From: Psammoneis japonica
Taxonomy: Eukaryota
Reading direction: 5' to 3'
Assembly: GCA_008632985.1 (NCBI GenBank)
Contig: QPGO01000076.1
Span: 62,001 to 126,000 of the forward strand
DNA length: 64,000 nucleotides
Part shown: one piece after another, positions 12,480 to 60,660 of the stretch
Numbering within the stretch: the first letter of the stretch is position 1
Layout: each line of letters begins with the position of its first letter
The notes under the pieces: generated by a model
What the model was told of the DNA's origin: nothing
The model's input: the letters and a program-made list of their open reading frames with translations, nothing else
Databases searched by the model: none
Translations under genes and position numbers: made by a program

Positions 12480-13800
12480 GATGCTGCGCTTGACTGCAAC
12501 CTCGCTCTGAGGCTGGGAGTTCCTCCAATCTCATCATCATCATGTTGTTCTTCCTTGTCGTCTCTTTGGATGCGGTGGCCCTGCAGCATGTGAGGTGCAC
12601 TGTGTGTGGGCATGGATGCCCCCTGTCCCTGTGCTCTGCGCTGGGATCTGGCAACCATTGACATTTCATCAAAGTGAATGTGAGGAGATTGTCTTCTCCC
12701 AAACATCAGAATGTAGAATGTGTTCAGAGCTTTGTGCAACGGTCAGAACACATTGTTTTTCATGAATGTCGTTGAATGGACATGAGATCTAGAAGCCGCA
12801 ATGGTGGACGAGAAGAGGAGAGAGCAAAAAACATGGAGAAAAAGCCAGTTTTGGAACAACCTGACAGAACAAGGTGATGGACTTAAGTGGCATCAGGCTT
12901 TTCAGATGGTGCATTTGCGTTCTGATGTTCAGATCAGAAGAGGCAAGGTTGATTGAAGTGCTGTCCAGATCAGTGTGATCAGAGAGCATGCTCATGGTGG
13001 TGGAAGAACATTCCTGGCTTGCCAAAGCCAAAATTGTTAGACCATTCAGATGGCACACTGAGCTCTGATGTGCAGATCAGACAAAACAAGGTGGATCGCA
13101 CTTGAATCCAGATCAGCTTGGAGCTGGCTTGCGGAGGACATCCGGATCCAGTGTGATCAGAGAGGGCGTGTTTGTGGCGGCAGGATGTGCCCCAAGCCTG
13201 CCAAAAACAAAGACACCTTCAGGCTGTTCAGACAGCATGCTCTCGCACTCTGATGTTCAGATCAGACAAAACAAGGAGGGCTGCACTGCGATCTGATCAA
13301 GTGGCTTGCGGAGGCTGCCCGGATCCAGTGTGATCAAGAGGGCATTTGCGGTGGTCGGGAATGTTCCGATCTGCCAAAAACAAAAACACCAAACTGCACT
13401 GTTCGTGCTCTGGTGGGACAAGTCAGAAGCAATGAGAGCAACACAGGTGCCATGCACAATCGACTTGGCTTGCGGAATCTCTCCGGATCCGAGTCGACGG
13501 CTGACTCATCGTGGCATTGCAGGCTGATCAAGGTGGTCAAGCCCATCCACTGTTTGTTGGCACCACACACACACAGCTCATGGGTGATTGTGCGAGGCAT
13601 GTGCCGCTCGGCAGAAGCAACATTTTCAGTGTTGTCGGCCCATGTCGGGTCAACGCAACTGATCCTGTCATCACCGGCAGTCCGCCAAACACCATGAGGG
13701 GAACTGGGGCGGCCTCTCGTCCATCGTCTGTGAACTTTCGTTCTACGAACATTGAGAATGTTTGAGAGATGTTGAGTCCTTTTCGTCCTGCTGATTGTCA
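12480..13800 (+). mobile_element. TpA-depleted decayed element with three internal imperfect repeats
   Basis: tctgatgt(t/g)cagatcaga recurs at about 12920, 13064 and 13249 with downstream similarity. Family not recognised. Confidence 0.55.
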
Positions 13801-32615: not shown

Positions 32616-32959
32616 GTTGTTCCTCTCCGATAATCAATCAGGTCGTCGATGAATACGTTCACTGAAAAGGAACCTCCCGTAAAACTCGCTATGAACTTTC
32701 TTATCAGGGTTAGCCCTCGCTGTGGTGCTGCTCTAAAGTAGTGTTGTTGCAACCCGATGCTAATGGCAGTGCTCTGTGTTTTATGCTTCTCACATCACAT
32801 CAAAAAAGTGACCGCGTCCGTTCAACGCGCGAACCGTTACGACTTAGCTTTTCCACTTCACTCTTTTCATGATAGTACATAACCGCTGGTTGTACTTCTT
32901 TGTCGCGGATACCCTTTGGTCGGAGTACGGTACGCAAACTGTTGCCGAGAGGTGCGGTG

Positions 32960-33150
32960 ACGCATCACACTCAGCCAGAGCGAGGTGGGTTTATTGGACG
33001 CAAGATTGGAGGTGCGCACTGTCCGTCTCTTTAGCTCAACGACAGAACTTCACGTCTGCGGCTGCTTTTTAGAGTTTTTAATGCCACGGACAACTGGAGA
33101 GAGCAGGAACTAATGCACGCTTTTCACGCCACCGGAGACTGTTGTTTTTT
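32960..33150 (+). repeat. About 190-bp dispersed repeat, copy 1 (paralog 43562-43746)
   Basis: gacgcaagattggaggtgcgcactgtcc...gagactgttgtttttt is shared. Confidence 0.85.
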
Positions 33151-36100
33151 CTGCACCATTGAGGTGAGAACATGACAAGTTCTCAACTCTGGAGTTTTGC
33201 AGGGCTGGGTTCACAAGAAGGCTGGCACCCACTGAGCCAGTGTCAACCACACCAGCTGGTGAACACCATCTCTGATGTGGCATTTGGGAGCAGCAGGAAA
33301 GTCCTGCAGAGCAGTTCAAAATGCACAAGCCACTGACTCATGACCCACACCACTTGAATTTTGACTGGCCAGAGCGAGGAAATCCTGAGCAGGGTGGTTG
33401 CTGGATGTCTGGCGGGGCAACAATCTGGGAATGCATGCGCACACATGCATGACACTCCCACACCGCAGTGCAAATTTTTTGATTTCAATTTGAATTTCTT
33501 GCACACCACAAAGCAAGTCTTGGTTTTCACTTGAATTTTTTGTCGCCATGCCCCCCCAACAGAAAATTCAAATGTGACAAACACGCGGCCGCACAATGCT
33601 CTGGGTGCATTCTCACTTGTGATGCTTGGTCTCTTTTTGACGTGTGACAAATCACTTTCTGGTCAACCCCAAATTCACATCACAAGCAAACCATGTTTTG
33701 CTTGCAGTTCATGCTGTTCTTGATTTTGTGCTCAAAACACTCAACGCAATTTCTGTTGTCACCACTGCTGCGAGTTTGTGTTCTTGATTTTGTGCTGAAA
33801 GCACTCAATGCAATTTCTGTTGTCACCACTGCTGTGAGTTTGTCTCTGTGGTCATTCACTGCTTTCCACCAGCAAACATTGACACTCTGCACCCTGCATT
33901 GTTGTGAGGACCTCTCTGCTGTGTCTGTGTGTTGCCATCATCTTGACTCACTCCCCAGCCCATCTCTGTGGAATTGCTGTTGTTTGCAGCAGCTGCTTCT
34001 GAAGCCTCTTCAACTGTGCTTGCATCTGAGTTGTCACCTCCTGCTGCTTCCCCTTTGCTGTCACTCCAGGAAAGTTTTTGGAGCAGCCCACCCGCTCATT
34101 CTTTCCTTTTTCCCTCTTCCTTTTGTTGCCTTGCACCTCCTCTGACTTTTTTGTCTGCAGGCACTGAGCATCAACTCTGCCTTTTTTCTTTTTCTTATCT
34201 TCTACTGCACTGCACAGCTTGTTGTGTTGGTTGATTCCATCCTGGTTCCATCACACTTGGAGGGCACAGACTGCCTCTTGTTGCATCCATGTCTTTGTCC
34301 ACCTTGTGCTCCAGCTCCATTTTTCCATTGTTGTGTGGCTGCCTTGCAGCAGCTGTGATGCACAAGCCTGACAAAAGATTCCATGCTTGTGGTCAGCCAA
34401 TTGCTGACACCTTGGGTTGCCACCATCTCAAATTGTTCCATGCCAGCTGCCACAGAGCAGCAGTTGTCTGAGAACCAGAAGTGCATGCTTGGCAACTCAA
34501 TGCCCTTGTTGACTTCATCAATGAATTTCAGCCTGTTGTCTCTCACCATTTCTATGAGCAGCTCATGCATGGTCAAGAGCAGAAGGTCAGCAGCACTCCC
34601 CACTGCATTTTTCTGCCACCTGTTTGTGTGCACCAAGCACCTTCTTCCTCAAAACCTTGTTTCTGTTGTTTTGTTGTCAATTGTGTCTCTTCCTCACCTT
34701 CTCCTTGCTCAGTTCCCACCAAACTGTGCAGTCACCATTGGCCATGTTGAGGTGTCTGCAAAACCTTTTTCTGCATCTTGCTGCCAAAAGTCAGCTTTCT
34801 CTTGTCATCTGTCATGAACATTGTCTTTGGGCACACTGCTGTTGCAATGCAGTTGTTTGTTTGACTGTCAACAAACTTCCTTTTGGCTGCCTCTGAGCTG
34901 GCGACTGATGCCCCTGCAATGTGCGCATTGTGAGATCCCATCTCTGTTGTGTTGTGGGTGGTGACTGCAAGGAAATGCACAATTTGTGTTGGCAGCAATG
35001 CACACATCTCTCTTGCATTGTCCTTGCTGCAATGCGTGCACCTGATGAATCATTCTGTGCTGACATCTCCTCCCATGTGCCTCTGCTTTGCTGTTTTGTG
35101 CACCCAACATTCACCAACCACACCTGCCAGCACTTTGTTGGCCATCCTTTTTTTCTTCTGCTTCTCTCCTTTGAATGCCTGAAATTTTCAAATGTTTTTG
35201 AGGTTTGCATCAACACATGCATTGTTGCATTAAATTTGATTCTCCTGTCATTTCATGAGTTTGCCATTGTGTGTGCTGCTGCCTTTGTGCGCTTAATTTT
35301 TCAAACAGGGTGCCAGCAATTTAGCTAATTTGTGAGCACTTCAGTGAATTCAATCAGATTGTCAGCCCACAACTGAGGGGGCTGCAGCCACTTTCAATCC
35401 AAACTGCAAACTTCTCATTCAATTGGCATGCTGTCCAGGCACACATGCTTTTGCCCTTGCTCATTGCCTGCTCCTCCATTCTCTTCACCCCCTCCTCCTC
35501 CTTGTCCATTGCACCTGCACATCACCAGGTTCATCTGATTCTCCCCATTGTTGCATTTTGTTTGAATGGCAGTTGTTGCTGCTCTCTCCTGCCATTTCAC
35601 AAATCCACTTTTGCACGCACTGCTGCTTTTTGAATGCTGAGTTTTTCAATCAGGACACCAATTTGACCAATTTGCACACACTTTTGCAAATGCAATCAGA
35701 TTGTTGGCCCACAAGTGAGGGGGCTGCAGTCACTCCAATCTAAACTGCAAACTTCTCATTTTCAGTCTGAACGCTGTCCAGGCACCAGCACTTTTGCCCT
35801 TGCCCATCGCCTGCTCCTCCATTCTATCTGCCCCTTCCTCCTCCTCCATTGCAGCCACCTGCCCATCACCAGGTTCATCTGATTCTCCCCGCCATTGTTG
35901 CATTTTGCTTGAATGGCAGTTGTTGCTGTTCTCCTGCCATTTGACAAATGTGCCATTGCATGCACTGCTGCTTTTTGAATGCTGAGTTTTTCAATCAGGG
36001 CATCAATTTGACCAGTTTGCACGCACTTTTGCAAATGCAATCAGATTGTTGGCCCACAGCTGAGGGGGCTGCAGTCACTCCACTCCAAACTCCAAACTTC

Positions 36101-37925
36101 TCACTCAGTTGCCATGTTGTCCAGCCCCCCATGCTGTTGCCCTCACTCATCGTCTCCTCCTCTCCTCCGTCCTCTCTGCCCCTTCTTCCATTGCACCTGC
36201 CCATCACCGGGTTCATCCACCCCCCCTTGGCATCTCTTGGCCATGTGCGTCTGTCAATTCATTGCCTTAAAGACTGCAAATGTGTTGAGAAAAGGAGAGT
36301 TTGCAGGGCAGACAAGTTCTCAGGTGTGATGTGCAAGACCAGCTGGAAGGAAACAATTGCTGCGCATGAGGCAATTGTTCCAATGGCAATGGAAGGCACC
36401 ATGGTTGACACACGCGAGAAGCAGAGACAAGTTGTGAGTGCCACATGGCAAAAGCAACATGTGTGTCAATGTGCAAGATCACACCATGCCGGGCTTGCAT
36501 CAACAAGCAATTGACAATTTGAGACAAATCTCACAAAAAATGAGAGTGGACATTTTGTCAAGCTGGTGCGCATCTTGGGTTTTTGCACAACCAGATGGAG
36601 GTGGTGGCAGAAAGCCCTTGAATGGGTGGTGGGACCTTGCAACTCCGTCATCAGCAAGCCTCTGTGTGAGTGGGCTGACAACCAAGGCACAAAGCAGTTT
36701 TTTTTTGTGCATGAAAAAAGAGCACATTTGTGATTGCGTGCTGGATGACAGACAACACACTGGGGCGCCATGCCAACGTGACAACATTGATTGGCAGGAG
36801 AGACTGGCGACACCCCAGCCAACATGCAATGGACAAAATGTGCTGCAGCGGACATCACTCAAGAGGCAGAAGAGTCCACTGAGCCAACTCCAGCAAACCT
36901 TCAGAAGGCAATCAACAACTTTCATCTGAACATCAAATGGCCAGAGTTGAGGACTCTGAAAATGATGATGATGGGAAGGAGATTGCTCAGCAGGCAATCA
37001 CAAAAGGACAAACATTGTGACATGGGATTCTCCCTGCCTCAATGGAGGGGGCACTTTGGCTTGGACCATTTGCTGCTTGTGGGACAACCACAAAGTTGAG
37101 GGTGCTGACATTGCAAGAGGCAACCTGACTGATGTGAGCATTCTCATCATGCTGAGACAGTGGGTCAGCTGGCAGTGGCAGCAATGACGCCAGACATGTG
37201 CAGCCTGTGCTCAGCAGAGTTGTGCAGAGCCACACAACCACTGGATGTTAAAAATGATGACAGCGGGGAGGAGATCACCCACACAATCACAGAAGAGATG
37301 GCCATCACAAATTGAGGGAGATGATGTTTTGGGAGGCAACCCAGGACTGAGACAGCAGGTCAGCTGGTGTTGGTGGCAATGAGGTTGGCCACATGCAACT
37401 TGTGCAGAGCTGTGTGGGATGGTGACCAGGTGTCAAAAAATGCTGACAACCTTGAATGCGAGCTTGCAGCAAATTAAAAACCACATGATGCTGTCTCCAC
37501 AGCCCACCCTCATGGGAGGAAGACCATGGCACAGTGGACAAAGATTGGCATCAAGGGCCACTTGGATGACCGTGTTTCTCATGAGGACCTGAGTTGGGCA
37601 TCATCACAAATGAACATGGACGTGGACACCAAGGCAAAGAAGAGGCTTGCAGAAATGGCAGTCACACCTCATGAGCAATGGGTTGTGGGCAAGATGCAGA
37701 CTTTCTGGATCAGGGGGGCACAAGATGGTGCCAAGCTTGGCCAGCAACATCGGGAATGCGGTTGATGAAAAAAAAATAGCTCTGGACATGAGTTGACAAT
37801 GGGAAGCTCTCCCGCCCATCTCAGTGTCAGGGAGATTGACTGGGAATCTCAAGTCCAAGCCATGGGTGACCTCAAGCTCTCCAGGCAACGTTGGGTGGTG
37901 AAGCATGTTTCGCAGAACTGTGTGG
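33150..37925. mobile_element. TpA-depleted block containing decayed non-LTR retrotransposon (LINE) fragments
   Basis: On the + strand, 37530-37920 gives IKGHLDDRVSHEDLSWASSQMNMDVDTKAK and EIDWE...SRQRWVVKHVS, resembling the RNase H and downstream region of diatom LINEs. A probable opposite-strand LINE 3' fragment lies at about 34200-35300. Confidence 0.7.
35350..36110. repeat. Tandem duplication, period about 345 bp, about 2.2 copies
   Basis: aatcagattgt..gcccaca..tgagggggctgcag occurs at about 35352, 35694 and 36039. Confidence 0.9.
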
Positions 37926-41140: not shown

Positions 41141-42199
41141 TAGGGCCCTACTGTCATACCGGTAGAAATACGGCACTAAGAGCATCTTCGCCAGTGAGTC
41201 GTAAACATAAACCTATGTCCGTACGTCTTCCGATACGAATGAGATTCACAAAAAATCATCATTTTCGGTGGATCGTAAACATATTTTTTGCGCTAATAAC
41301 CTTTCGAATTTACGATTCATGAAAGTGAATCGCAAATCAGGCCTTGGATACGATCCACCTCCAAAATCGTAAACGAAAATCGTAAATTTCTGGTACAAAA
41401 AGGGTGTAGAAATCCTGTAGAAAGTGCGTGTCACCATGACGAAACGACAATCGACGCTTTCTTGATGAGAGGACCTTACAGAGGCCCAACAATTAAGACT
41501 TTGTCGTATCTTATGAACTTACATACGGCCGCATCGAGATATGGGAGGAGAACCGACATATGGGGGGTTTATGGGGTCAGAAGAGAATAAGGCATAAATC
41601 GTGTGATAACATTTCGCTTGTTTTCGCGATGTAGAATGACTTTCACAACATAGTAACACATAGACATATAATATGAATTATTCTCTATTGATAGACGTCG
41701 ACATATCTTTGAATAGACGGTGATTTGTGTCGTATATTGCGTTCAAAGCCGCCATGGCGTCATGTAAAATTCAACAAGTCCGTCCTACCATCAGTTAGTT
41801 ATTGATATACGTGTATGGAGTTGGTTGTTACCTCAACGTCTGCCCAACCATCGGCCGAATGTGAATACGATTGTGATCGACTGAAAATGATGGTCGCGTG
41901 CAGAATCGTAAACTTATACGGGGCAGTCTGTTCGCTTGTCCTTTTAGGTTATGTTCCTATGTTTATGTTTATGTTTACGACTCACTGGCGAAGATGCTCT
42001 AAAACACACTGTGCACACAGTGCCTGTGACACAGCACATCTGTGTTGTGCAACAGAGATCTAATGTGCTCAAGTGTACCTACGTGGCAGAATTTTGGATG
42101 TGCATTTATGATGTGACTGACGTGGAGCAGAGCTGTCGAACACTTGCTTGAGATTCCAATGTCCCCTGCTCACGCACACGAACCCACCAGTGGTCTGTG

Positions 42200-42660
42200 T
42201 GCATTGAAACAATGCTTTGGTGATGGCAACACATGCAGTGCATTGTGCAGTCTCCCAGGCTCTCAAGATCTCTCCAGGAAAAATGGTTTTTCATCAAGAT
42301 GTGATTTTAGATCCACCTGTCACATCATGGATTTGGTTGGTGCCCAATGAAGACCGCCAACAAGCTCTCATTGATGCCAACCTTCAACGTGCAAATGCCA
42401 AGCCCTGGTGCTGCAATCATCACACAACAGGTGGGGGCAAGTTCTTGTCACATCCATTGACCCTGCCAAATTAGAGACATGGGCTCATGGCCCTTGTCCT
42501 GTCATTCAAGTGCAAGCCAACAGCACAATCGTCATCCAACAAGCTCCACATGTTGTTGAGAGCGTCAGTGTCAGACCTGCAGCGCCACCTTGGGTTTCAG
42601 GTTTTTTTTTAATGTCTTGGTTTCCCTCTTGTCCTTTTGATTTTGTTCATTGGAAATTTT
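42200..42660 (+). mobile_element. Decayed Gypsy integrase C-terminal fragment related to the element at 55131-60508
   Basis: CAVSQALKISPGKMVFHQDVILD...LIDANLQRANAK...IDPAKLETWAHGPCPVIQV aligns with CAVSRALKISPGAMVFQRDMILD...IVNANLRRANAK...IDPTKLEPRAHGPHPVVQA. Confidence 0.88.
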
Positions 42661-43561
42661 GAAATTTTGGGTTTCTCTGACATGATTCTTGCTTTACGTG
42701 AATTTTCCATGCGTTTCCATGTGGAATTTTGCATCTTTCATTGCTGATGTGGAGCGAAATTGTTGAGGTCACTTGTGACTCCAGCTGGCTCCAACACTCA
42801 CTGGTTTCCATTTTCTGGAATCCACGCAAACCAGGCCAACAATTTGTTTTGCACAGCAATCTGTGGAAGTGTGTGACAAAAAAGTCATTCTAAGTTTCTG
42901 TTGCACAGAAACTCAAAGCACCTTCAGCATGCATTTCAGGGAGAACAGCAAGTTGTTGTGCTCATTGCCCAATCTCTCACCTCTTTTTTCATCTCTGCTG
43001 CTGGCATGTCACCATGACAAGGGCGAAGGACTGAGACAACAAGAGGGTTGTTTTTGCTCTCTTTTGTCATGTTTCCAAGTCTCATTTGGCGACGCTGAGC
43101 CCAGCTGCAGCTTCCACTCACACAGCAGAGCATTGGGACAAGGCTTGAGGTGGCTCTCAGGAGAAAAGCTGTTGCTGACTTGGAGCCAGCTGGCAGAGCT
43201 GCAGTTGGCAGAGAAGCACTTGAGAAGTCATCAAAGTCTGCACTGCATTGGCCCCACTCAAGGCACTGTGCTGTGCAGCTGAGCTGATTGCCAGGCCAGG
43301 CTTGAAGCTGGGGTGGTTCCTGGAGAGAGCAGAAGATGGAAGCTGCAGACCCTGGTGTGCATGGGAAGCTTTTGGAGCTTGGCATGCTCTTGGGGTGGGG
43401 GGCACATCAATGAGAGAAGACTGGGTGAACAAGTCTCTGCTGGAGGCCATGAAGTTCATGATTATGATGGCTCACTTTCCCAGGTGTGCACCACAAAACT
43501 GTTGTCAAAAATTCATGTGCACACACAAAGAACATCATTTTGTCTTGGTGCGTAAACTGGC

Positions 43562-44985: not shown

Positions 44986-45159
44986 CTCTGCAGAACTGTC
45001 AACACTGTATGTATTACAGCAGCGAGTGATCGAAGAAACGAACAGTCGATCAACTTGATGACAGGACCAGAATCTATCTCATCTTCCACGCATCACAAAA
45101 AAATATTCGATTTCGCGCCACAAATTGAAATCTGACGTCATCGCAGGCAGGAAGGACGG

Positions 45160-48100
45160 ACGTGCAGGCAGTCATGTGTGGATTTGTGGCACCAAAAAAA
45201 TTTGCAGCATCAGCATTTCCCACCAGCAATTCCACCCGGGGATGTCAGACTGACAGATGGGATCAGTCAAACTTCATGCTTTTCTGCCTTGCCATGCTCT
45301 TGTCTCCAGGCAGAGGGCTGCAATCTTCTTGTTCATCAACCTCATTTCTGCTGCTTAAAAGATGGAGAAGGCAAAAGCTCAAAAACATGAGATTTCACAC
45401 ACACACTCACTTTGGGCAACAAAAAATGAGCGTTGTTTCACAAGGGAACCCCGCTTCACCACCTTTGTGTTTGTGACTGTTTGCCAGACACATTCCCACA
45501 CCAACAGAGCCAGCTCACATCATTTCGCCATTGCGCCGCAACAATGCCTCAAGAATGCCCCAAATGTTTCTCTGCTCCAAAGTCCACAGCTGCGTGCATC
45601 AAATGAAAGAGCAATGCAAAGAGAGCAGCCACAAGGTCCAGTGAGCAAGCTGGCTGCAACTTGGGGTCAGGTTTGTTCTTCTCACCAACTTGCAACAACC
45701 AGGCTCAAGAGCTGCCCACCTTTCACAAATGAGGGCAAATTGGCATGCCCTGGCTTGCTCTCCAGATCTGGCCCATGTTTTGCTGGCCACACTTGGCCAT
45801 CACATCTGTGTGTGGCTGTCCAGACAACATGGCAGCTGTCATGAGAAAACACTGATGCCCCCATGTTGTGCTTCCATGAAAGACATTGGCGGTCTCTTTC
45901 TTTTCACCAGAGCGCTGGGAACACTTGATTTTCTGGTTGCTGGGCAGCTCTGCAGAGAGCCTTGTTCTTAGATTCCCAACATTGAAGTGCAGCTGCAGTG
46001 GTGCAACAAAAGGGTGTCCTCAAGCTCACACAGAAAAACCAAGCAAAAAACCCCACAGCAAGACAGAGCAAACATCACCGCAGGAAGCTCTTTGTTGGGG
46101 CATGCAATGCTTGCCACACAGGCCTGTTCCAGCTCCAGGTGATGCGCGCCACAGGTTCAATCTGATTTTTGCATTTGGCACATTGAACTTTTTCAAAATC
46201 CATTTTTTGCCAAATCAAAGGGCAAGTGCACACTTCACACATGCATTTTTGGGTGTGCACTTGCCTTTCGATTTTTGAAACGATCGCAAAATTGAACGAG
46301 TTTAATGTGCCAAACTGTGCAGAAAATCGGCCTCTCGCATGACAGATTTCTCATCACAACACCCCCCTCCCCAAGGGGGTGCAGCACCCACTCAAACATG
46401 AGGTGCCCCAGCTCCCAGCTGGCAGGCAACACCCTTCCAGCACTGGAGTGCCATCAGCTGCCATCATGCTCTCCATCTGGAAAAATGCAGTTTGCTCTCA
46501 CTCAGAAATGAAGCTTGCTTGACAAAAATCCTGTGTTCTTGTTGAGCACTTGGCTTCTCCTTCAATGCAAATGAGTGGGTCTTTGCAGTGGACTGGGCCA
46601 TTGAAGTGGAAAGCCAGAGTTGAGTTGAAATGTGGTCTCACAGTGCATGAGCTGACAATTTTTGCACATGTCCGCAATGCTGTCATTTTGAATTTTGTGC
46701 ACACAAACAAAAAAATTGGCAAAGCAGGGGACAACAATGGGTGAAACATGTTGCTCATTTTTGTGCACACATGATCTCATCAATTGTTGTTTTGTTTGTT
46801 GGCTGGAGCATGCCAACAATTTGATTTGTTCACTTGCCAGTTGGCGCACATTTTGCAATTTTGGTCTCCAATGATGTTTGCTCTCTGCCCTGGCAACATT
46901 TGACATTTGGCTCAATGCCGCCACTTCACCACCTTCACTCCACTCTCAGTCCTTTGTCACTCAAGCTGCAACCCCATTGTCTCTTGCGGCCAGCCCTCTT
47001 GCATCTCAGCATTGCATCTTGCTGCAATCTTCATGTTTCCAAGTTCCAAGAGAGAGTCAGTTTTGTGACAGCTTCTCATTTTGAGGCACCATGGTTGCAA
47101 TTGCTGGCAGAAGAAGGCAGCAGAGAAGTTGTCAGTTTGGCATGTTGTGCTTGGCAAGTGTGGCTCAACTTTGCTTTTGCAGTTCACCTGCGTGGCACGT
47201 CATTGCTGCGTTGTGTTTCTCTCTTCATTTGCTGTTTTTGCTGGCTTGCCCAAGTTGCAAGAAACAAGAAACTTTGCAAAAGCACAAGTTTGAGCTTGTT
47301 GTTTTTTGCAAGCACTGTCTTCTCCCATGTCACACATTTTTCTGACTTCTTGCCTTTCCTGTAGATTTTCTTTGCTGGTGTGCACAGAGTCATGGGTTTT
47401 GTTGGTGCCCTCCTGCAATGTCAACATTGCTTGGGTGCTGCTTGGGTGCATCCCATGTTTTTGTCATTTTTTTGCCATGGAGCCAAGCCAGCCAGCCTGG
47501 TGGGGGAATCTCATTGCCTGCATCATTTTGAAAGTTGCAGCACATCTGTTTGCAAAGAAGGCCAGTGTCTCAATTCTGTGATCTTTGCCAGCTTTTGTCA
47601 AGATGGAAATTTTTGCTTTTGTGTGGGAGTGCACACCCAGTTTTTTTGTGTCCATGGGGCTGCTGCTGCTGCTGTGGCTGATTTTTTGCAGCTGATCCAC
47701 ACATGCGCACAACAACCTTTGTTGCTGTTGTGAGATGATGCCATGGTTGAAACTTGCTGGCAGGAGGTCAGAAGAGGTCATGGAGCTGGTTGTGTGCAGG
47801 CCGTTCTTGTCGTGGACAAGGAGCTGGTTGAGCAAGAGGTTGGCTGGGCAGCACACAGCTGCAGCGGTGCCAGGCATGTGCCTGCACAAAGCCAGAGCAG
47901 CAGTCTCCCAGAGACATTCAGGCACAGCAGCTGCAGCACCTCACACAGCTTTCCTCCTCCCTGGCAAGTGACTGCCTTTGCCAGCATGGTTGCGTGCTGT
48001 TGTGCACTGGCCCCATGTTGCCTTGTTGTCCCCAACAAGTCAGTGCAGACTTGAGCTTCCCAACTCAAGAGCAAAGCAGCCCCATGACTGCAGCAGCACC

Positions 48101-51100
48101 AGAAACCAACCCAACAAGCAACAGCAGGCTGAGGGCACTGATGGTCTCAGGCAGATCCCGCACCAGCATGGCACAGTTGTGCACCCTGTCATGTCCTTCC
48201 AGTCAGAAGCACACTTCAAACTCCCCCAACTCCAGAATGAAAGGAACCATGATGGTGCCAGCCAACCTGAAAACAGCAAGCTGGTGAGGGCTTTGGTGGT
48301 CTCTGGAGGATCTTGAGTGGCGCTCTGTTCCACCAGGGTGAAATTTGGGAAAGCCTTGATGCTGCAAGTCCAACAGGAAGCCGACAGCTTCCAGCACTGT
48401 TGTGGCATTGTGCAATTGGTGTCAATGCATTTTTGCACTTGTGCTGCAATGCCGTGGCCATTTGACCGGCAAATCCTTGCCACAACAATCTAACTCTGTC
48501 CAGCTCAGCATGGTTGCATGCTGTTGTGCACTGGCCCAATGTTGCCTTGTTGTCCCCAACAAGTCAGTGCAGACTTGAGCTTCCCAACTCAAGAGCAAAG
48601 CAGCCCCATGACTGCAGCAACACCTGAAACCAACCCAAAACAAGCAACAGCAGGCTGAGGGCACTGATGGTCTCTGGGGCAGATCCCACGCCAGCATGGC
48701 ACAGTTGTGCACCCTGTCATGTCCTTCTAGTCAGAAGCACATTTCAAACTCCCAACTCCAGAGTGAAGGAACCCATGATGGTGCCATCCAACCTGAGACA
48801 GCAAGCTGAGGGCTTTGGCAGTCACTGGAGGATCTCAAATGACACTGCAATGGCCATGGTTGAGTGGCACAAGGCCCACTTGTGTGGCTGTGGTCTCATG
48901 TCACCTTGACCGCCCCCACCACTGGGGGGGCAGAGCAGACTTCCAAACTCCACAGTGAAAGGGCAACAACAAGCTGAGGGCACTGGCACCGGTGTCTGGG
49001 CAGCCCCAGGCAACACTTTGAAACTGTGGCCAACAAGCATTGCACAGGCAAGGTTGACCTTGTGACATTGCAACCCCTTGTCACCTTGCCCCCAACAGCA
49101 GCAGACTTGAGTTTTCAAACTCTGCAGTGACTCATTCAAAGGTCCAATTGCTGAACAGCAGTGGGCAAACAAAACTTGAAAAAAAGCAGCCCACTGAGAC
49201 TGCCAGAGATGCACAGAGTTGTGTGGCAAAATGCCATGAGGAGAATGGAGAAATTCACAGTGGCATTTTTGAGAAACAAGGTTCTTTTTGTTGGAAGCAA
49301 TGGATGAAGAACTGCAGTGGGTGGGCAAACCATCCTCCATTTGTTCATTCTGGTCTGAAGTTCCAGCAAGACTGGATCTCATGGGAGGATTGGCTGGGGT
49401 GTCATGAGTTGGAAATGTGAAAAAGATCTTTGATGTTGCATGTCACCCAATTTTTGAAGGCTGAGAGCAATTTGTCAATCTTGTTTCCTGCCGCAAGTTG
49501 TTGTGAGCAAGTCTTTGTGTCAAATCTTGTTGCTGATGCAGCTGCTGCAGTGTGCTGCAAATCATCAACTCTGCCAGCCTTTGCACAAAACCTCCCAGCA
49601 TCAAATGTGTTTTCTGTCTCCAAAGCCTTGATTGTTGCAGCAGCCACTCATGCAGCCCAGGCCCTGGAGCCAGGTGCACAGAGAGTGCTTGTCCTTCTCT
49701 CTGACAAACAAATTAGCACCCTGCACTTCAACAAGCACCACAGCATCTCTGAACAACCTTCTGCAGTTTTCTCCAAGAGACAGCAACAGCACACTTGCAG
49801 ATCAACAAGGAAGAGCTGCACACAGACAGTGGATGCCATTTGGTTTTTGCCTGCAGAGAAATCCTCTGCCACAACCAAAAACAGAGTGTGCCAGTGTGAA
49901 AGCAAAGACCAAAACAAAAACACAAAAAATCAAATCACAGCCTCTTGTCAGGAGCTCCAATGACTTGGCACTGCAAACGGGCACTTTGTTTGTGTTTCTG
50001 GCACATTTTTTGTCAATCAGCAGCTCAAAAGTGGCTCTGAATGAAGCACAGATTGACCCACTTTGTGATCATGGGGGTTGATGCTGGCATCTGGCATTTG
50101 TCAAATTGAGATGTGATGACAAGGTCAGGTTGTTTGACAAGCATTGTTGTGGCAACAGGAAGCATGGGTGACAACAGGGGTCAAGTGACAATGTGACAAA
50201 TTGTGGCAGCTGCTTGCTGCTTGACAGTTTGAACAGGGCTCTGGGCTGGAGCGCAAGAAGTTGACATTGGGCAAAAGGCAAGGATTCAAGTTTGCAGTTG
50301 TGGTGTCTGTCAAAAGAGGCTTGGTTCAATGAGGAGGTGTTTTGAGAGGAGGAGATTCTCTCCATTGTGTCAGACATGTGACAAGGACACCGGCGCAACA
50401 TTGTCATGCAAGCAGCAGATCAGCAGCTGAGTTGTGTGGTGGTGCCCCATGCAACAAAGAGGTGAATTCAGCAGAAACACAAAGAAATGCAATGAGCAAT
50501 TGAGCTGAAGCTCTTCCAAACAAATGAGTCAACTCTGAACAAGATGCTTGGCCACAAAACAAAAGCCAGAAAAAATTGACTGCAGTCAGCTCAAATGACA
50601 ACTTTGGGGCAATGCCAGATTTGCGGCTGAGAAAATGTGTCAGCGTCAAAATGTGTTTTGGAGCCCAAATGACAGTGACCACCTCTTGGCTGGTTTTTGA
50701 AAAATTGTGGCACCTGTGCAGAGTGCAATTGCTTCCACATGGAGGAGAAAACAAAGCAGCATGTCTGTTCCATCCACAAAACAAGTTGGAGATCGTTCTT
50801 TGTTGCACTGTGCTGCAAATGGTTGAGATCGCCTTGCCGGCATGTTCCACCACCAAGCACATCTTCCATGCTGTCCTCGACATGCTTGAGGATATTCTTC
50901 ATGAAGTGGTCCATGCCTTGAGTCTGTGCAATGTCAAAGCACAGTTGTCAGAAATGACAACAATGGGTGCAAATCAAAACACAGACAACAGCAATGTCAG
51001 TGCGAACACATGCAACCACAAGGGAGCTCACTTGATTTACAACATCAGCTCAGTCCATCTCAGCCAACAGTTTCTCCAACAGCCAACATTTCTTGATGAT

Positions 51101-51950
51101 GCTCAAACTGTTTGTTTTGCACACTCTTGGCATCATCCGTCAAACAGTGAGAAAAAGCACACGCGCGTGCTTCAAAACACGCCTGCACTCCACCAATTGT
51201 TCATTGGCCGTCTTGAGAAATTCCACATGTTGGTTCACTTGGCATCTAAATTGGATTCTTGCAACAAATCCATGCATTGTTCTGTTTCACGCAACTGCTT
51301 CATGGCAAAGGCTTTGCGCTTTGGCGCGCACACAATGGCGCTTGCGGCAGCGCAGCAGACACCGACCCAACTCTCGCTTGGCCCAGGCCGCATCCGATGG
51401 ATCGTTGGGGCAAACTTGTTGTGCTTGCGCAGCAATGTAGACACCCATGTTGGCACCGCATGGTCCTTCCAATCACCAGCACACATTCAATGACATTCGT
51501 GCCGACAAGGCTGGCTTGCTGACGTGGCAGTTTTTTGAATCAAATCCTTCGCCACCATGCGTGAAAGCTCATTTGCACTTTGAGCATGTTGGCGCCGTTC
51601 CACAGCAGAGCAGCAGTCACAATGAGGATGAAATGGCAAAAGGATGTTGTTTGCCATGACACGTGGACGTTTCATCATGGCAATCTCTCCGAAAAAATGA
51701 GAAATGAGAAATGATGGAGGGTGCGCGATCCGATCATGTTGAAGTTGAAGAACAGCTCAATGAGGCAAAACACTCCCATTGTGGAAAGGACTGCAAGACG
51801 CTCATGACTTAAGTCAGTCACGAACGCTCGTCGTCACTCATTTTTTGTGCCGCCGACAAAAAAAATCTTTCGTGCGATTTGTTGCATTTTCAAAATTCGC
51901 CAGCATCATTCTCACTTCCCACTCAACACCAATCAATCAAGTTGCCATAA
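45160..51950. other. TpA- and CpG-depleted block of unidentified decayed repeats
   Basis: Near-absence of TA over about 6.8 kb, with only spurious Cys/His-rich ORFs. CpG is partly retained towards the right edge (51.2-51.9 kb). Confidence 0.85.
47980..48835. repeat. Direct duplication of about 340 bp, period about 523 bp
   Basis: cagcatggttgc.tgctgttgtgcactggccc.atgttgccttgttgtccccaacaagtcagtgcagac occurs at about 47982 and 48506. Confidence 0.92.
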
Positions 51951-51985
51951 AAAACAACAACAACGAAACAAAAACAAAGAATAAC

Positions 51986-54815: not shown

Positions 54816-55130
54816 AGATGTTGTTCGTGGTTGAGTTGAATCATGGTTTGTATTTTTGTGTCGACGTGTTGTAAAACATAGTGTCCGTCGACAAGCAATC
54901 TCATGATGGGAAGTGGAAAGAATATTCGCGACCAAACGGCTCGCGAAGCAAAAAAATGAGGTGAAAGTGGTGGCGGGAATTCTTGAGAACAAGGCGTAGA
55001 AATGTACCAGAAGATCCGTAGAGCTACGTGTTTTTGTCACGTAGCCGCTCAGTACACAAAAGCTGCATGAAAGATCGCGCGTGACTCATCACTCGTGAAG
55101 CGCCTCCGTGACCCGTGACTGAGCGCTGAG

Positions 55131-55292
55131 TGCAAGGTTTAACGAGATAAAGACTTCAGTGATAACAAAATTGTGAGCGAAAGACCGAGGTAACGAGGGT
55201 CGCTTTCAGCGAAGCCCGTTACAACGGCTTCCGTTATATCTAATAGGTTCATTAATACTATATATCAGAAAAATAAGGTGCGAGACACTGCA
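55131..55292 (-). repeat. 3' LTR (162 bp)
   Basis: Identical to 60347-60508 by eye. Preceded on the minus strand by PPT GGAAGGGAAGAG (55293-55304). Confidence 0.95.
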
Positions 55293-55395
55293 CTCTTCCC
55301 TTCCATGATTCGAGTGTCGCGGGACTCAAAAAATTTAAATTCCAATGGATGAGGATAGAAGGGAAACCCAAATGTTGGGGAGAAAACCCTTAACC

Positions 55396-58300
55396 TCAGG
55401 TACGATACGGGACGACGCGACGAATATTCAATCGTTCCGTTACATGAGGTGCACGTTGGACCGCAATCGTGCCGTTGGCGTGTGCTTGAACGACAGGATG
55501 TGGACCGTGAGCTCGTGGCTCGAGCTTGGTTGGGTCGATGGCCTTGAGTAGAACGTGTCCACCAACTTGAAAATCGTAGGACCGGCGTTTAGCGTTGGCT
55601 CGACGGAGATTCGCATTGACAATCGCTTGTCGGTGTTCTTGAATGGCAGCAAGATCGGCCAGGACCGGCAAGTCAAGAATCATGTCACGTTGAAAAACCA
55701 TGGCACCGGGTGAAATCTTGAGAGCACGAGAAACCGCACATCGCATTGCATGCATGGCGGTTGCCAATGCATTGTCCACTAGTTGATTGGCCTGCTCAAC
55801 ATTCTGTGGAGGACAAACATGAAGCAAAGTGCGCAAGACATTTCCAACAGTTTGATGCATGCGTTCGCATGCCGCATTGGCTTGTGGGTTTCGCGACGTG
55901 GTTGGAGCGTCTTCCACTCCTGCTCGTTGCAGCAACAATTGAAAGTCCTCTCCAATGAATTCTCCACCATTGTCATGGATGCACCGGTTCGGACGAGGAC
56001 AACGAGACAACCAACAATTTTCAAATTGTTGAGCAATGTGAGATGAGGTTTTGTTGTCGATGCGAATAAGTTCAGTCACATTCGAAACGGTGTCAACACA
56101 AGTCAAAGCGTTGAATTCGATTTCATGGTTTTGAATTTCAATTTTCCAGGGACCAATGAGGTCAACCGCAACTTCTGTCCATGGCAACAAAGGCGCTTCC
56201 CGTTCAGGCAGGTCCCCATGTCCAGGGCCCAAAGTTTTCAAACGTTGACAATTGGCACAATGAAATCTTTCACAGGATTGACGAAGGGCAGGATGACAGA
56301 AATGTGCGCCAATGGTGGAATGCATTCGGTGCACTCCTGCATGTCCCAAAATTCTGTGACACCATCGCATGACATCATGCAGCAACGCCGTTGGAACACA
56401 AATTTTCCACGCAGTCGGAGGATCATTCGGTCGAGCACGACAACAAATTGCAGGACGCTGATTCACATGTTCCACCATGAAGCGTTCTGGACATTGTTGT
56501 CGCATGTTGTTCAGCTCCACGTCGATGAATTGGTGTTCTTGAATTCGTTGCACAGTTGCAGGGTTTTGCATTTCCTCGAGAGAAGGACAGTTCAAAAATG
56601 ATTCACACAATTCGGGGTCATCCACGACGGAAGAGTAAAATGGAGATGGTTCTTCACGACGACAGGAAAAACAAGACACACTGTTTTGGTCGTCCAGTTC
56701 TTCTTCATGCGGCAGCATGGCAGGGTTGATGGTTTTAAAATCAATCAGTTTGCCCTTGTTAGGAGCACACTTCCCTTCCGCAGGAGGGTCCACACGCGGC
56801 AATCTTGAAAAACAATCCGCCAAGAGATTGTCTTTGCCATCAACGCATTCAAAAGTTGGGGCAAAATCTTCCAAGAAGAGTCGCCACCTAAGAACTCGTT
56901 GAGAATTGAGCGTGCGAAAGGTGAGATTTTTATGATCCGTAAAAACAGTGCAGTCAGCTCCAAATGACATGCTTCGGAATTCTTTGAAACACATTGCCAC
57001 CGCCAACAATTCTTTGTCAATCGCAGAGCAGTTCTGTTGTGCTGCGCTGAGTTTTCGGGACCAGCAAGCTGCTGGTTTCCCGTCTTGCACAATTACGGCT
57101 CCCATCTGACAGTCTGAAGAGTCAGCACAAACATGGAATGGCTTGTTGTGATTCGGGCAGACCCAAAGGGTGTCGTCCAGCATCAAGGTTTTCATGTCTT
57201 CAAAGGCTCGTTGACATTCAGGAGTCCATTCCAACTTGCTCTTGCCTGTTAACTTCGTGAGTGGAGCGAGCACGTGTGAACGACGAGGCCACATGTTGCG
57301 ATGACATGTCACTGCACCGACAAACGATCGTAGTTGCGTCACAGTTTTAGGTGGTTGCATTCGTAGCACCGCTTCCACTTTCTTCTTCCACGGTCGGACT
57401 CCTGCAGGCGTGAGCCAATGGCCCAAAAAATCCGTCTCTTGGACACACCATTCACACTTGAGTGGGTTAATTTTTAGATTGTTCTCTTCTAGTCTGGACA
57501 ACAGCTCATCGAGTCGACGCATGTGAGTGTCAAACGAATCATCAAATTGAGCAATGTCATCAATGTAAGTTTCAACATCGATTCCTTTTACCACTTTTTC
57601 AATGATGGCTTGAGCAATGTCAGGAGAGGTTTTCAAACCCATGGCCAATCGACAACATCGAAATTTTCCAAACGGAGCAACAACAGCACACAAATCCTTG
57701 GATTCTTCGTCAAGCTCGACATGACAATAAAACACAGTGAGGTCCAACTTGGTCAAGCACTTGCATCCCGAGCGTCGGTGAATGACGTCTTGAACAATCG
57801 GCAGAGGGTGGACCTTTCGTTTGAGTGCCTTGTTCAACTCTCGAAAATCGGACACCCATCGAACTCGTCCATCCTTTTTGGGAGTTGCAAAAGTTCTGGC
57901 TGCCCATTCAGTTGGTCCCACTGGCTCTAATGCGCCAATGTCACATGGATGTTGCAATTCTTTCTTAAAAACGGCTTCATCCCTCTTGGGTGCTTCGCAA
58001 GCCTTAGAATGGAAGGGAACAGCGTTGGGATCAACTTCCAAGTGAACAGTCTCATGCGGACATTTGCCAAGCGTTCCATCAAAGAGGGTTTCATGTTTTT
58101 CAAGCACCGCCTGCAGCTCATCACGTTGCTCTTGAGTCAAGTGAGTTTGAGCTTGCGCCACTTTCGCGGATGGCACTTTCTCGCATTTGGCGTCCATCAT
58201 AAAAGATTGTCCGAAGGCTCCCTCATCGTCTTCGTCCTCTCCGTCGTCTTCCAGTGTATCCAACCAATTCTGAACTGAGTTCCAATGATTGGATTGCTTC

Positions 58301-58650
58301 ATTGGGATCGACGTTTCCAACCACTTTGTTGTTCCAAATCGAAAATCAAGTGCGATTCCGGCTTTCGACAAAAAGTCTTGTCCCAAAATTAAATCACACT
58401 TGCATGGGGCATCAAAAACTTGAGCCGCAATGCTGTCGACTTGTTTTGACTTGTCAAATTCTGGCAATGTCAAGTCCTTCATAACAACGTATCGGGAGGA
58501 TTCATGTCATCCGGCTGCCGTCTGAAAGCTCAACCGTCCTTCATCGTTCATGGTTGGATTCGCTCCCTTCGGCAAAACTCGAGAATGAACAAGAGTGTCA
58601 GTGCCTCCTGAATCCAATGGCACTCGTGACACTCGCTTGCTCTCTTGATT
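55396..58650 (-). CDS. Gypsy pol (PR-RT-RNaseH-IN), hypermutated
   Basis: 1028-aa open frame at 55396-58482 with PKKDGRVRWVSDFRELNK, YIDD, TDHKNL, VAVDLIGP, HDNGGEF and NPQAN motifs. The protease start at 58500-58650 is in shifted frames. Confidence 0.92.
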
Positions 58651-58891
58651 TTTGAATGGCACGCGCCGCCATCAACGTCGTTGGCACCACATTCAATGGT
58701 TTGGGAGTCACAGTTTTAGGGGTTGGCACAGCGCACTCCAAAACGCCGCCCAATTTTTCTTCATTCACAGCATGAGATTCCATCAGGTCTCCCACATTGT
58801 CACCAACATTAAAACACATGTTTTCTTCACGATCACACGAAACATAAAAAGATTGAGCGACACGCTCTGACTCGGGCACTTCCGTCCCTTG

Positions 58892-60136
58892 TCAATTACG
58901 CCAACTTCGTTGGCCTTGATGGGTGCGACCGTTCTGATCGCATCCATTTCCACCTCGCATCTCACGAGGCCCTCCTTGATCAAAATGGTGCGACTCCAAT
59001 TGCCAGCCACCAGGAGGAGCTGCTCCAGCCGGATTTCCATAGCCTTGGGTGTCACCGTTGGCTTGGGTGCCGTTTTGATTTTGGCAATAGGATCCATTCC
59101 CTTGAGAATTCTGGGAGTTGTTACAATTGCCGTAACCTCGGCCTCCACATCCTCCTTGATTGCCACAATTGCCACGTCCTCGACCTTGGAAGTTGCTGCG
59201 ACCGCCTCGACCTTGGGGTCCTCTGCCTTGGCAGTTTCCTCGGCCTCCACCACGACCTCCGCTACGACCACCACGGTCGGACCTCGGTCGACAGTTTTGG
59301 CTTTCTGGATTCAAAGTGCAATCCTTCCACTTGTGGTCATGATTCGCACGCACCGGGCATCTAAATTCTGGATCCGTTCTGCCACCATTGCCACGAGAGT
59401 GTCTTGAAGCTTGAGACGAAGCACCATTGCTTTTCCTCTTCTTGTCCTGCTTCTTGTTGCCACTCTTGTCAGCAAAAGATTTCTCGTTGTTCATGTGGCC
59501 AATGATCTCAGCGAGAGCATCGTTCGCTGTCGCTCGTCCTGCTCGAGTGTGCATCTCACGCCACGGACGAGGAAAGCCATCGAACATCATCTTTTTCTTC
59601 TGAGCTTCGTTGACTTGAGGAGCATTTCCTGGAAGTTTGTTGGAGTGCCGAATCAAGGTTTCCATGCGATCTGCACGCGCCTGCACTTCAGATTTGAATG
59701 GTTTTTTCAAAGTTAGGAAACATTCAATCATCGTATCACGCGCTTCATTGTCACAATAAGACAAGTAAAAACGATTGATTTCCTGATCAAAACGCTCGAC
59801 AGTTTTATCGGCATCGTCAATTGCATTGGTCAAGTTCGCCCACTTGTCCTCTGCAGCATCCGCAAGCACTTCCTCGAAATTTTCGAACAATTCCTCGCCA
59901 GTGGTGTACTCCAATTTCACAGCGATTTTACGAAAACGATCCTCAACGAATGACAATGCTTCAATACCATGAGTGCCATCAAAACGCGGACACTTTTTTG
60001 TACGAGTGCCACCGTCATCATGCGATTGGGTCAATTTCACTTCCTCCAAGTCAGAATGCTCAAATTTAGCTTCATAGCTAATGCAAGGCTCCTTCAACGA
60101 TTCACTCATCATGAAAAAGGGAATACAATTGTTCAA
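58892..60136 (-). CDS. Gypsy gag
   Basis: 414-aa ORF just inside the 5' LTR, with a CPVR..HDHKWKDC zinc-knuckle-like motif and a Gly/Arg-rich tail. Confidence 0.85.
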   Translation of the reverse strand: MNNCIPFFMMSESLKEPCISYEAKFEHSDLEEVKLTQSHDDGGTRTKKCPRFDGTHGIEALSFVEDRFRKIAVKLEYTTGEELFENFEEVLADAAEDKWANLTNAIDDADKTVERFDQEINRFYLSYCDNEARDTMIECFLTLKKPFKSEVQARADRMETLIRHSNKLPGNAPQVNEAQKKKMMFDGFPRPWREMHTRAGRATANDALAEIIGHMNNEKSFADKSGNKKQDKKRKSNGASSQASRHSRGNGGRTDPEFRCPVRANHDHKWKDCTLNPESQNCRPRSDRGGRSGGRGGGRGNCQGRGPQGRGGRSNFQGRGRGNCGNQGGCGGRGYGNCNNSQNSQGNGSYCQNQNGTQANGDTQGYGNPAGAAPPGGWQLESHHFDQGGPREMRGGNGCDQNGRTHQGQRSWRN

Positions 60137-60346
60137 TAGTCCTCTCCAGGGACTCTACCTTTGACTCCAAATGATGCACTCGGCTCGCCAAATTCTGTTC
60201 GTGTCGTTTACGTTGTTGCACTTGTTTCTGGTGCTCAATAGCCCAAACTGCTGCTCTTGCGCGTAGTTCTCTTTTCTCACGTTTAGTCAATTTGTTTGTA
60301 TTATTCCTAGTCTCCATCCAGTTCTTTAAATCGACTGTAATTACAG

Positions 60347-60508
60347 TGCAAGGTTTAACGAGATAAAGACTTCAGTGATAACAAAATTGTGAGCGAAAGA
60401 CCGAGGTAACGAGGGTCGCTTTCAGCGAAGCCCGTTACAACGGCTTCCGTTATATCTAATAGGTTCATTAATACTATATATCAGAAAAATAAGGTGCGAG
60501 ACACTGCA
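60347..60508 (-). repeat. 5' LTR (162 bp)
   Basis: Identical to 55131-55292. Confidence 0.95.
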
Positions 60509-60660
60509 CTGTGCGCTGTGAGACACGGGGGTTGGAGCAAAGTGTGTTGCTCAACAAGAGGTCGCGAAGCTGTTTGAACAACGAAATCCCTGCCAAGTCA
60601 TCTTATATACACGGCTATAGCAAAGGGGCAAGCGGTGAAAACGCCACCACAAGCTGCCTC

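Follow-up and report, generated by a model that had tools for sequence, protein, structure and literature searches.

Targeted hypermutation of mobile DNA is well established for cytosine, as fungal repeat-induced point mutation (RIP) and as APOBEC editing in animals. RIP of ascomycete fungi changes C to T, mostly at CpA, in duplicated DNA during the sexual phase, and it creates both TpA and stop codons. To our knowledge, the adenine version, directed at TpA, rests on one 2026 preprint on one alga, and we know of no enzyme for it. The main text of that preprint reports that, in mutation-accumulation lines of the chlorarachniophyte Bigelowiella natans, changes of TpA to TpG or CpA arise de novo in integrated viral DNA during vegetative growth (Mettrop et al., bioRxiv 10.64898/2026.01.13.699255). 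In integrated nucleocytoplasmic large DNA virus (NCLDV) and virophage sequences, 230 of 231 mutations were A to G or T to C, and all 230 lay on TpA; the signature came from short-read data and was treated as genuine mutation, TpA-poor coding sequences were enriched for reverse transcriptase and DDE domains, and the authors proposed an ADAT2-like candidate, whose action on chromosomal DNA is itself only proposed (bioRxiv 10.64898/2026.01.13.699255). Here we describe a 64,000-bp stretch of the genome of the diatom Psammoneis japonica (contig QPGO01000076.1, positions 62,001 to 126,000, assembly GCA_008632985.1; hereafter the window), which holds a Ty3/Gypsy-type long terminal repeat (LTR) retrotransposon whose interior has lost most of its TpA. 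We read this loss as a real mutational scar, left in a multi-copy element and in five further domains of the window by a process that turns TpA into TpG or CpA with a preference for 5'-TAY-3', and as the diatom counterpart of the B. natans hypermutation; we put the probability of this reading at about 0.62.

The depleted interior of the element (Table 1) contained 41 TpA, against 164.9 expected at the window's background observed-to-expected ratio (O/E) of 0.593 (Poisson P = 8e-31). The integrase part, 55441-56630, was its emptiest stretch, with 5 TpA per kb. About three quarters of the interior TpA has been turned into TpG or CpA by A:T to G:C transitions. The borders of the depletion were abrupt, at 59714 and 55441, and TpA density was normal outside them, that is, in the LTRs, in the leader and gag N-terminus (59714-60510 with the LTR) and in the last 310 bp (55129-55440). 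A preliminary description of this DNA, which flagged 55396..59700, needs the correction that the depletion does not extend over the entire element. All codon phases were depleted (5.8, 11.6 and 15.4 TA per 1000 codons in pol vs 31.9, 24.7 and 45.3 in host open reading frames, ORFs), so that the loss is not an effect of codon usage.

What became of the lost TpA could be read from the pol protein. Its stop-to-stop frame of 1036 aa contains 6 Tyr, 46 Cys and 42 His, or 0.58%, 4.4% and 4.05%, against means of 3.57% for Tyr (lowest 2.56%), 1.8% for Cys and 3.1% for His in the 120 relatives listed. We aligned 60 of these 120 relatives with the query and found 25 columns in which at least 60% of the 60 have Tyr. 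The query has Cys at 17 of these columns, His at 5, Tyr at 2 and Phe at 1, and it retains the other conserved residues (Trp 14/14, Cys 9/9, His 15/16, Gly 34/36) as well as the Tyr of the YIDD motif (position 314). Since Tyr gave way to Cys or His rather than to Phe, the replacements look like the product of mutation and not like the choice of selection.

We then collected 89 private departures, that is, columns with a consensus residue in at least 50% of the 60 relatives and a query residue that is rare among them. A single transition accounts for 49 of the 89, and 42 of the 49 are of the TpA type (30 TA to TG and 12 TA to CA on the sense strand); the remainder are two A to G changes elsewhere (one at ApA, one at CpA, none at GpA) and five G to A or C to T changes. 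When only columns at least 80% conserved were considered, 34 of 48 departures were of the TpA type and no other transition was seen. The 42 presumed TpA-type replacements include 18 of Tyr by Cys and 5 of Tyr by His. By this alignment, the query departs from the Gypsy consensus almost entirely through A:T to G:C transitions at TpA, yielding TpG and CpA.

These results confirm the observation from which the preliminary description started, and make it stronger than it was first stated. Its 1028-aa pol frame with 5 Tyr is correct when counted from the first Met, the codons that it quoted from the minus strand (TTC CAT GTT TGT GCT GAC, FHVCAD, at 57138-57121; AAA CCA GCA GCT TGC TGG, KPAACW, at 57078-57061) are exact, and its observation that consensus Tyr residues read Cys or His now stands at 22 of 25 columns. 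It had further proposed that the A:T to G:C change is directed at TpA and strikes both strands, in a direction inverse to that of RIP; the 42 TpA-type changes set against two other A to G and five G to A or C to T changes bear this out, and so does the loss of TpA with gain of CpA and TpG.

The depletion was not shared by the wider family. In 79 related loci from metagenomes, TA O/E was 0.67 +/- 0.12 (lowest 0.39), and none of their 1-kb windows had a TpA O/E below 0.31. By this comparison of sequences, TpA depletion is not a property of the family. Because the patterns used in the scan favour unmutated copies, the 79 loci say little about how widely the process is spread.

We asked in which context TpA had survived. 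Among surviving TpA, the context YTAR (CTAA/TTAG, TTAA, CTAG) made up 35 of 58 in the old domains described below and 17 of 41 in the young element, vs 223 of 1455 in the background (P = 4e-14 for the old domains, P = 7e-5 for the young element). Survival of TpA in YTAR was 0.63 in the young element and 0.27 in the old domains, and in the remaining contexts 0.16 and 0.03, respectively; ATAC, ATAT and GTAC were nearly absent among the survivors. This enrichment suggests that the preferred target is 5'-TAY-3', which is 5'-RTA-3' on the opposite strand. At codon boundaries, T followed by an AY-initial codon (Ile, Met, Thr) was converted in 12 of 15 cases and T followed by an AA-initial codon (Lys, Asn) in 0 of 4 (P = 0.009). 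The same preference would make Tyr to Cys commoner than Tyr to His.

Both the context of the survivors and the codon-boundary test match the specificity of TadA/ADAT-type enzymes, whose target A has T or U on the 5' side and a pyrimidine on the 3' side, although this is a likeness of specificity only. TadA naturally acts at U-A-C-G, and the editors evolved from it favour TA (as described in the consulted part of PMC12265680); in TadA, ADAT2-ADAT3 and the TadA editors alike, the target A is preceded by U or T, as in the proposed 5'-TAY-3'. Natural TadA/ADAT enzymes act on a tRNA loop, whereas here the target would be chromosomal DNA. A deaminase with a 5'-T preference, which the preliminary description had named as a candidate, thus fits, and the 3'-pyrimidine preference strengthens the fit.

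The element was not the only depleted part of the window. We found six sharply bounded domains scrubbed of TpA, of which the element is the youngest; together they cover about 25 kb of the 64 kb, or about 40%, and the other five cover about 21 kb. In these five, TpA O/E was 0.036-0.126, often one TpA per kb, CpG O/E was 0.18-0.47, and TG and CA O/E were 1.6-1.9, with a sequence that is complex rather than a simple repeat. Their edges are steps within tens of bases against a background TpA O/E of 0.59: at the left edge of the domain at 33120, for example, TpA occurs each 15-30 bp until 33111, and the next one is at 34196. The domain at 45110 begins about 30 bp from the 5' end of a 2-hydroxyacid dehydrogenase ORF (43747-45078, minus strand).

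TA, CG, TG and CA together came to 240.6 per kb in the background, with 238.2 for the young domain and 240.9 for the old ones. Per kb of old domain, a loss of 39.0 TA and 39.4 CG stood against a gain of 78.8 TG plus CA. Such a constant sum is expected from transitions alone. In the young element TpA O/E is 0.15 while CpG O/E is 0.91, suggesting that TpA is lost faster than CpG, and in the old domains a decay of CpG to TpG or CpA overlies the scrubbing of TpA. The source of this decay is probably 5-methylcytosine (5mC). Diatom LTR elements are CpG-methylated, according to the part of PMC2806351 consulted. Deamination of 5mC would explain the CpG O/E of 0.03-0.5 in the old domains and part of their TG and CA excess, but it cannot remove TpA.

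The scrubbing also changed the stop codons. Within their initial boundaries (1-8000, 12200-13500, 32900-37800, 41900-43300 and 44900-51400), the five domains each had 64-434 TGA on both strands vs 11-37 TAA plus TAG, and all six frames together held 92 ORFs of at least 90 aa. Because the change of TA to TG or CA removes TAA and TAG and makes no in-frame stop, depleted domains fill with stop-poor ghost ORFs. The statement of the preliminary description that proteins are damaged without new stops therefore agrees with what we found. Its remark that ORF finders still call the element intact needs a correction: the pol frame is long and open, but upstream of it an in-frame TGA at 58509-58507 separates a protease-like stretch from the pol ORF, and the frame changes near 58649, where one base is missing in half of the read depth.

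We next compared this copy with the others present in sequencing reads, using contigs from a single run (X1). Summed word depth was 600-3800 over the element and 49-97 over its flanks, indicating a multi-copy element, and 342 of the 1258 contigs placed were at least 99% alike. Transitions made up 86 of the 95 variant places listed. Inside the element, 27 of the 34 variant places shown fell in the TA/TG/CA/CG quartet: 10 were TA to TG or TA to CA alternatives, 12 formed six double changes between TG and CA at one dinucleotide, and 5 involved CG. The copies thus differ by their TA, TG and CA states and have been hit independently. At the same time, at most 42 places of G to A or C to T were listed, vs roughly 120 presumed conversions, so that most converted states seem common to at least 90% of the depth of the family. 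At 60210, 60303 and 60328 this copy keeps TA, and at least half of the read depth from other copies has TG there.

The two terminal direct repeats of the element are identical over 166/166 bp. With identical TpA-rich LTRs, spared ends and states shared by other copies, the changes in this copy seem mostly inherited and not made in situ. The preliminary description had spoken of a DNA-level process in repeat domains; for this copy the in situ part of that claim mostly falls away, and the mutational origin stands. It had also named, as a refutation, Cys and His residues shared by all copies of an actively transposing family. The data come near to this, as most states are indeed shared, but the copies still differ by TA, TG and CA states; since the converted states are derived relative to the 60 relatives, sharing does not refute a mutational origin.

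A history that accommodates these data would run as follows. An enzyme of TadA/ADAT2-like specificity would deaminate adenine to hypoxanthine in the DNA of silenced mobile elements, and the hypoxanthine would then pair with C. An ancestor of the present copy would have been scrubbed in its interior; the resulting protein-dead lineage would have kept working LTRs and ends and been copied in trans, presumably by an autonomous relative, and this copy would have inserted recently. The same process, near completion, would have scrubbed the five other domains, with the slower CpG decay overlaid. A mosaic formed by recombination, or by a patchy hit, is as possible as ancestral scrubbing.

Set beside the B. 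natans case, as far as the main text of that preprint describes it, the diatom scar agrees in being near-exclusively A:T to G:C, in its confinement to TpA with both TpG and CpA as products, in being local to foreign or mobile DNA with the rest ordinary, and in the long-term loss of TpA with gain of CpA and TpG. The kind of process is therefore already known, though barely, and the suggestion that it is a new kind of system cannot be kept, since the same signature had been reported de novo in B. natans (bioRxiv 10.64898/2026.01.13.699255). The two cases differ in host (a diatom, Stramenopiles, and a chlorarachniophyte, Rhizaria), in target (an LTR retrotransposon and unrecognisable domains here, NCLDV or virophage there) and in depth, which is far greater here (O/E 0.04-0.15 vs 0.45 for the B. 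natans NCLDV region, over about 40% of the window). CpG decay is coupled to the loss of TpA in the diatom as a further difference. A TAY preference appears here, and the main text of the preprint uses neither 'trinucleotide' nor 'flanking', and 'motif' only for TpA or protein motifs; nor does that text mention diatoms. Finally, the B. natans events were seen de novo, whereas the diatom process is known from standing sequence. What is new, then, is that the host belongs to another lineage and the target is a retrotransposon, together with how deep and how far the scrubbing goes, its order relative to CpG decay and the TAY motif. In the literature searched, which covered sources outside subscription journals, we found no report of such hypermutation in a diatom; a term search of the accessible text of PMC2806351 and bioRxiv 10.1101/2025.10.24.684338 returned no mention of hypermutation or dinucleotide bias, and the only 'TpA' string in that of PMC4504042 was the word 'Tpase'.

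Like RIP, the process in the diatom is transition-only and dinucleotide-directed, destroys mobile sequences and produces compositional domains with sharp borders. Unlike RIP, it destroys TpA, creates CpA and TpG and makes no in-frame stops, so that the hallmarks of RIP (C to T at CpA, more TpA, stops) are absent, in a host that is a diatom. RIP also needs duplicated DNA and a sexual phase, whereas a 2.5-kb duplicate in the window is untouched: the tandem prolyl oligopeptidase genes (Peptidase_S9_N plus Peptidase_S9; 8299-10949 and 16284-19351) are 96.7% identical over 2522 aligned bp. The pair gives no support to repeats as the trigger and shows that duplication alone does not draw hypermutation, though selection on genes could mask targeting. 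Hyperediting of animal retroelements by ADAR and by APOBEC3 likewise consists of deaminase-driven, clustered and context-biased transitions fixed in copies (consulted in part, PMC4866542). It differs from the diatom case, in which both TpG and CpA occur and the old domains are scrubbed throughout, because ADAR acts on an RNA strand only and needs double-stranded RNA, and APOBEC makes G to A or C to T changes. The sense-only A to G pattern of ADAR was not found here: 12 of the 42 presumed changes were TA to CA on the sense strand.

Could the insertions have arrived already mutated? An adenine deaminase acting in the retrotransposition cycle, on element RNA (sense-strand UA to UG) and on cDNA in single-stranded form (TA to CA), would be an adenine analogue of APOBEC3 restriction, and in the APOBEC case LTR-proximal regions are spared. 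Identical LTRs, spared ends, edges within the element and conversions common to the copies all suit this, as do scrubbed domains whose edges lie tens of bp from host DNA, which is how insertions mutated beforehand would look. Sense TA to TG also exceeds TA to CA (30:12 overall, 18:5 in Tyr codons), and products of the same strand show weak clustering (13 runs, P = 0.041). The TAY context of Tyr codons, however, accounts for most of the sense excess, and in Tyr codons preceded by a purine (R-TAY) a hand count gave 9:3, which is non-significant; as both ratios are confounded by the TAY preference and by the visibility of changes in the protein, we do not claim a strand bias. Both TpG and CpA products are present, the old domains are uniformly scrubbed and lack LTR-sized TpA-normal islands, the leader has TG in other copies where this copy has TA, and the same signature arises in B. 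natans, according to the main text of the preprint, in integrated DNA viruses during vegetative growth. On balance we regard editing in the retrotransposition cycle as unlikely. Another chemistry on DNA is also conceivable, with the lesion on the thymine of R-T-A (for example oxidised or otherwise altered so as to mispair with G) or on an adenine carrying a methyl group. Mispairing with G is a property of oxidised thymines, and in some protists T is modified at TpA; TpA being palindromic, the spectrum and context results fit 5'-RTA-3' with T as target equally well. The match of T-A-Y to the U-A-C substrate of TadA and to the TA preference of its evolved forms (part of PMC12265680), together with the ADAT2-like candidate of the B. 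natans authors (main text), makes this chemistry doubtful in our view, more so than editing in the retrotransposition cycle.

Two further explanations deny that there is a mutational process at all, and we consider both highly improbable. If modified bases in silenced DNA were miscalled, so that TA (and CG) was read as TG or CA, sharp-edged domains with joint loss of TA and CG would be expected, as we see. The run X1 contigs, over flanks with a word depth of 49-97, carry the same states, with the caveat that X1 may be the source sample of the assembly; TA, TG and CA alternate between copies at the same dinucleotides, like real alleles, the ends of the same element are unaffected, and the same signature was obtained from short reads in B. 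natans (main text of the preprint). Accurate-read contigs with the same states and allele-like differences between copies thus make an artefact unlikely. Alternatively, the family might avoid TpA adaptively, by codon usage or to escape a nuclease or RNase that reads TA, with a protein that still works, and the long ORF, the retained YIDD Tyr and the recent activity of the family could be taken in this sense. Yet 22 of 25 conserved Tyr have become Cys or His and one Phe, the two that were kept are no more than overall TpA survival, depletion extends to every codon phase and to the non-coding parts, the 79 relatives are undepleted and the pol frame is broken upstream; an open frame is uninformative on function because TA to TG or CA makes no in-frame stops. 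GC-biased gene conversion was rejected as it would not be confined to TpA.

Several observations weigh against a mutational scar made by adenine deamination in the DNA of this diatom. The read evidence comes from run X1 of one study, a single sample that may be the one from which the assembly was made, and contigs drop rare variants. Because TpA is self-complementary, a lesion on A and one on the paired T are indistinguishable. That the process acted in situ at the level of DNA in this diatom is something we infer. Step-like edges inside the element, together with identical TpA-rich LTRs, are awkward for a mark laid on whole elements, and the sparing of the LTRs and ends needs an added assumption, be it a patchy hit, recombinant origin or selection on cis-acting ends. 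The prolyl oligopeptidase pair, 8 kb apart, has normal TpA and, with 11 TA to TG or CA alternatives among 82 mismatches, nothing of the scrubbed pattern. None of the 53 ORFs scanned (of the 92) in the old domains had a credible Pfam match, one match being at chance level (E 0.006). Recognisable mobile-element sequence occurs in 2 of the 6 scrubbed domains; when the window was searched by tblastn with the 120 Gypsy relatives, the only match beyond the element was the integrase fragment at 42127-42602, so that the mobile-element nature of the old domains is read from that one fragment and is correspondingly putative.

If the mutational scar is real, a wider proposal may be ventured, to which we would give somewhat less than even odds. 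Diatoms may run a chromatin- or RNA-guided DNA adenine-deamination defence directed at 5'-TAY-3' that clears mobile DNA of TpA faster than 5mC erases CpG. Shared with Rhizaria, it would be old within SAR (Stramenopiles, Alveolata and Rhizaria). Loss of TAA, TAG and Tyr codons would turn transposons into stop-free ghost ORFs, and only lineages with escaping TATA-bearing LTRs and cis-acting ends would keep moving, living non-autonomously at the expense of relatives that are intact.

The same scar in a diatom suggests that the process is not peculiar to Bigelowiella, and brings the question into a group that offers transformable model species and extensive genome data. TAY is a sharper motif by which to choose and test candidate deaminases, the series from young to old domains offers a natural time course for the relative rates of TpA and CpG loss, and a natural DNA adenine editor of defined context would be of interest to base-editing work. 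There is also a warning for annotation: scrubbed DNA keeps long frames in six phases, and a Tyr-free 'intact' pol and ghost ORFs would be called genes.

Table 1. Features of the element and of the scrubbed domains in the 64-kb window (positions in the window).
Feature	Position	Strand	Remarks
Old scrubbed domain	1..7900		24 TpA in 7.9 kb, O/E 0.043; CpG 0.27; TG 1.82; CA 1.74; extends past the left end of the window
Small scrubbed domain	12350..13450		TpA O/E 0.10, CpG O/E 0.47
Old scrubbed domain	33120..37700		TpA O/E about 0.05, CpG 0.18
Scrubbed domain with Gypsy integrase C-terminal fragment (42127-42602, +)	42110..43100		
Old scrubbed domain	45110..51300		TpA O/E 0.036, CpG 0.19
Ty3/Gypsy-type LTR retrotransposon, complete copy	55129..60510	-	5382 bp; sits in TpA-normal host DNA
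3' LTR	55129..55294	-	100% identity to 5' LTR; 15 TpA
pol ORF	55396..58506	-	1036 aa stop to stop; reverse transcriptase 209-364, RNase H 427-548, integrase 704-874 (residues)
TpA-depleted interior	55441..59713		4273 bp; 41 TpA, O/E 0.147; CpG O/E 0.91; + strand TG 1.26, CA 1.55
Upstream continuation of pol, protease-like	58507..58656	-	DSG motif; same frame; from tblastn alignments and translation
gag-like ORF	58892..60154	-	420 aa; without Pfam match
Leader and gag N-terminal part	59714..60344	-	TpA normal, 39.6 per kb; step change at 59714
5' LTR	60345..60510	-	166 bp; 6-bp terminal inverted repeat AGTGCA/TGCACT; 15 TpA, O/E 1.07

The element has the order typical of Ty3/Gypsy, a gag ORF followed by pol with RVT_1, RNase H and integrase, with LTRs on both sides. 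There were 689 relatives at E <= 0.001 (best 62-63% identity). Relatives aligned across 55357-60088, and one relative matched by tblastn in a single frame from 58644 to 55402, through the in-frame TGA. In one X1 contig, 55029 is linked to 60508 through 25 other letters and the element is absent, as in an empty-site allele or strain. As a candidate target-site duplication, the sequence G(A/T)GCGCTG is found on either side of the element but does not directly abut it on the right. The empty-site contig also differs over 100 bp to the left of the insertion. The flanks occur in two allelic contig versions, indicating that the sample is heterozygous or mixed.

No recognisable protein domain was found in the old domain at 1..7900. 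Three repeat pairs inside the old domains, with 14 alternative CA/TG states, were considered as proof of in situ change and set aside as ambiguous, because the pattern is identical whether the ancestral state was CG or TA. Within the domain at 45110, CA is 2.2-2.4 and TG 1.6-1.7 at 46500-47500, and TG is 2.06 and CA 1.75 at 48000-48500; the orientation of buried elements, or strand-specific patches, may account for this local imbalance. The right end of the last scrubbed domain, from 50500 to about 51800, is TpA-poor (O/E 0.06-0.1) with a CpG O/E of 0.5-0.84, like the young element; it contains a 321-aa ORF (50528-51493) without Pfam match and reaches the ABC_ATPase gene (51764-54223).

Four of the metagenomic loci (L026, L036, L037 and L033) had a TpA O/E of 0.39-0.49 with TG raised to 1.3-1.6, and two of them also had low CpG (0.4-0.5); they may represent mild instances of this process in other organisms, or normal spread.

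Among named sequences, the 2-hydroxyacid dehydrogenase ORF matched Nitzschia inconspicua (79%) and Seminavis robusta (74%) best, with Cylindrotheca and Fistulifera next; by these matches the host was placed among the raphid pennate diatoms. In stretches of normal TpA there are tandem repeats (14156-14721, 30747-31229 and 31475-32124), whose units measure about 180 and about 150 bp at 66-98% identity and differ without TpA bias. The ABC_ATPase/MRB1590-like ORF at 51764-54223 matched its Pfam model in three stretches and carries a hydrophobic in-frame insert (about residues 390-430) that resembles a short unspliced intron.

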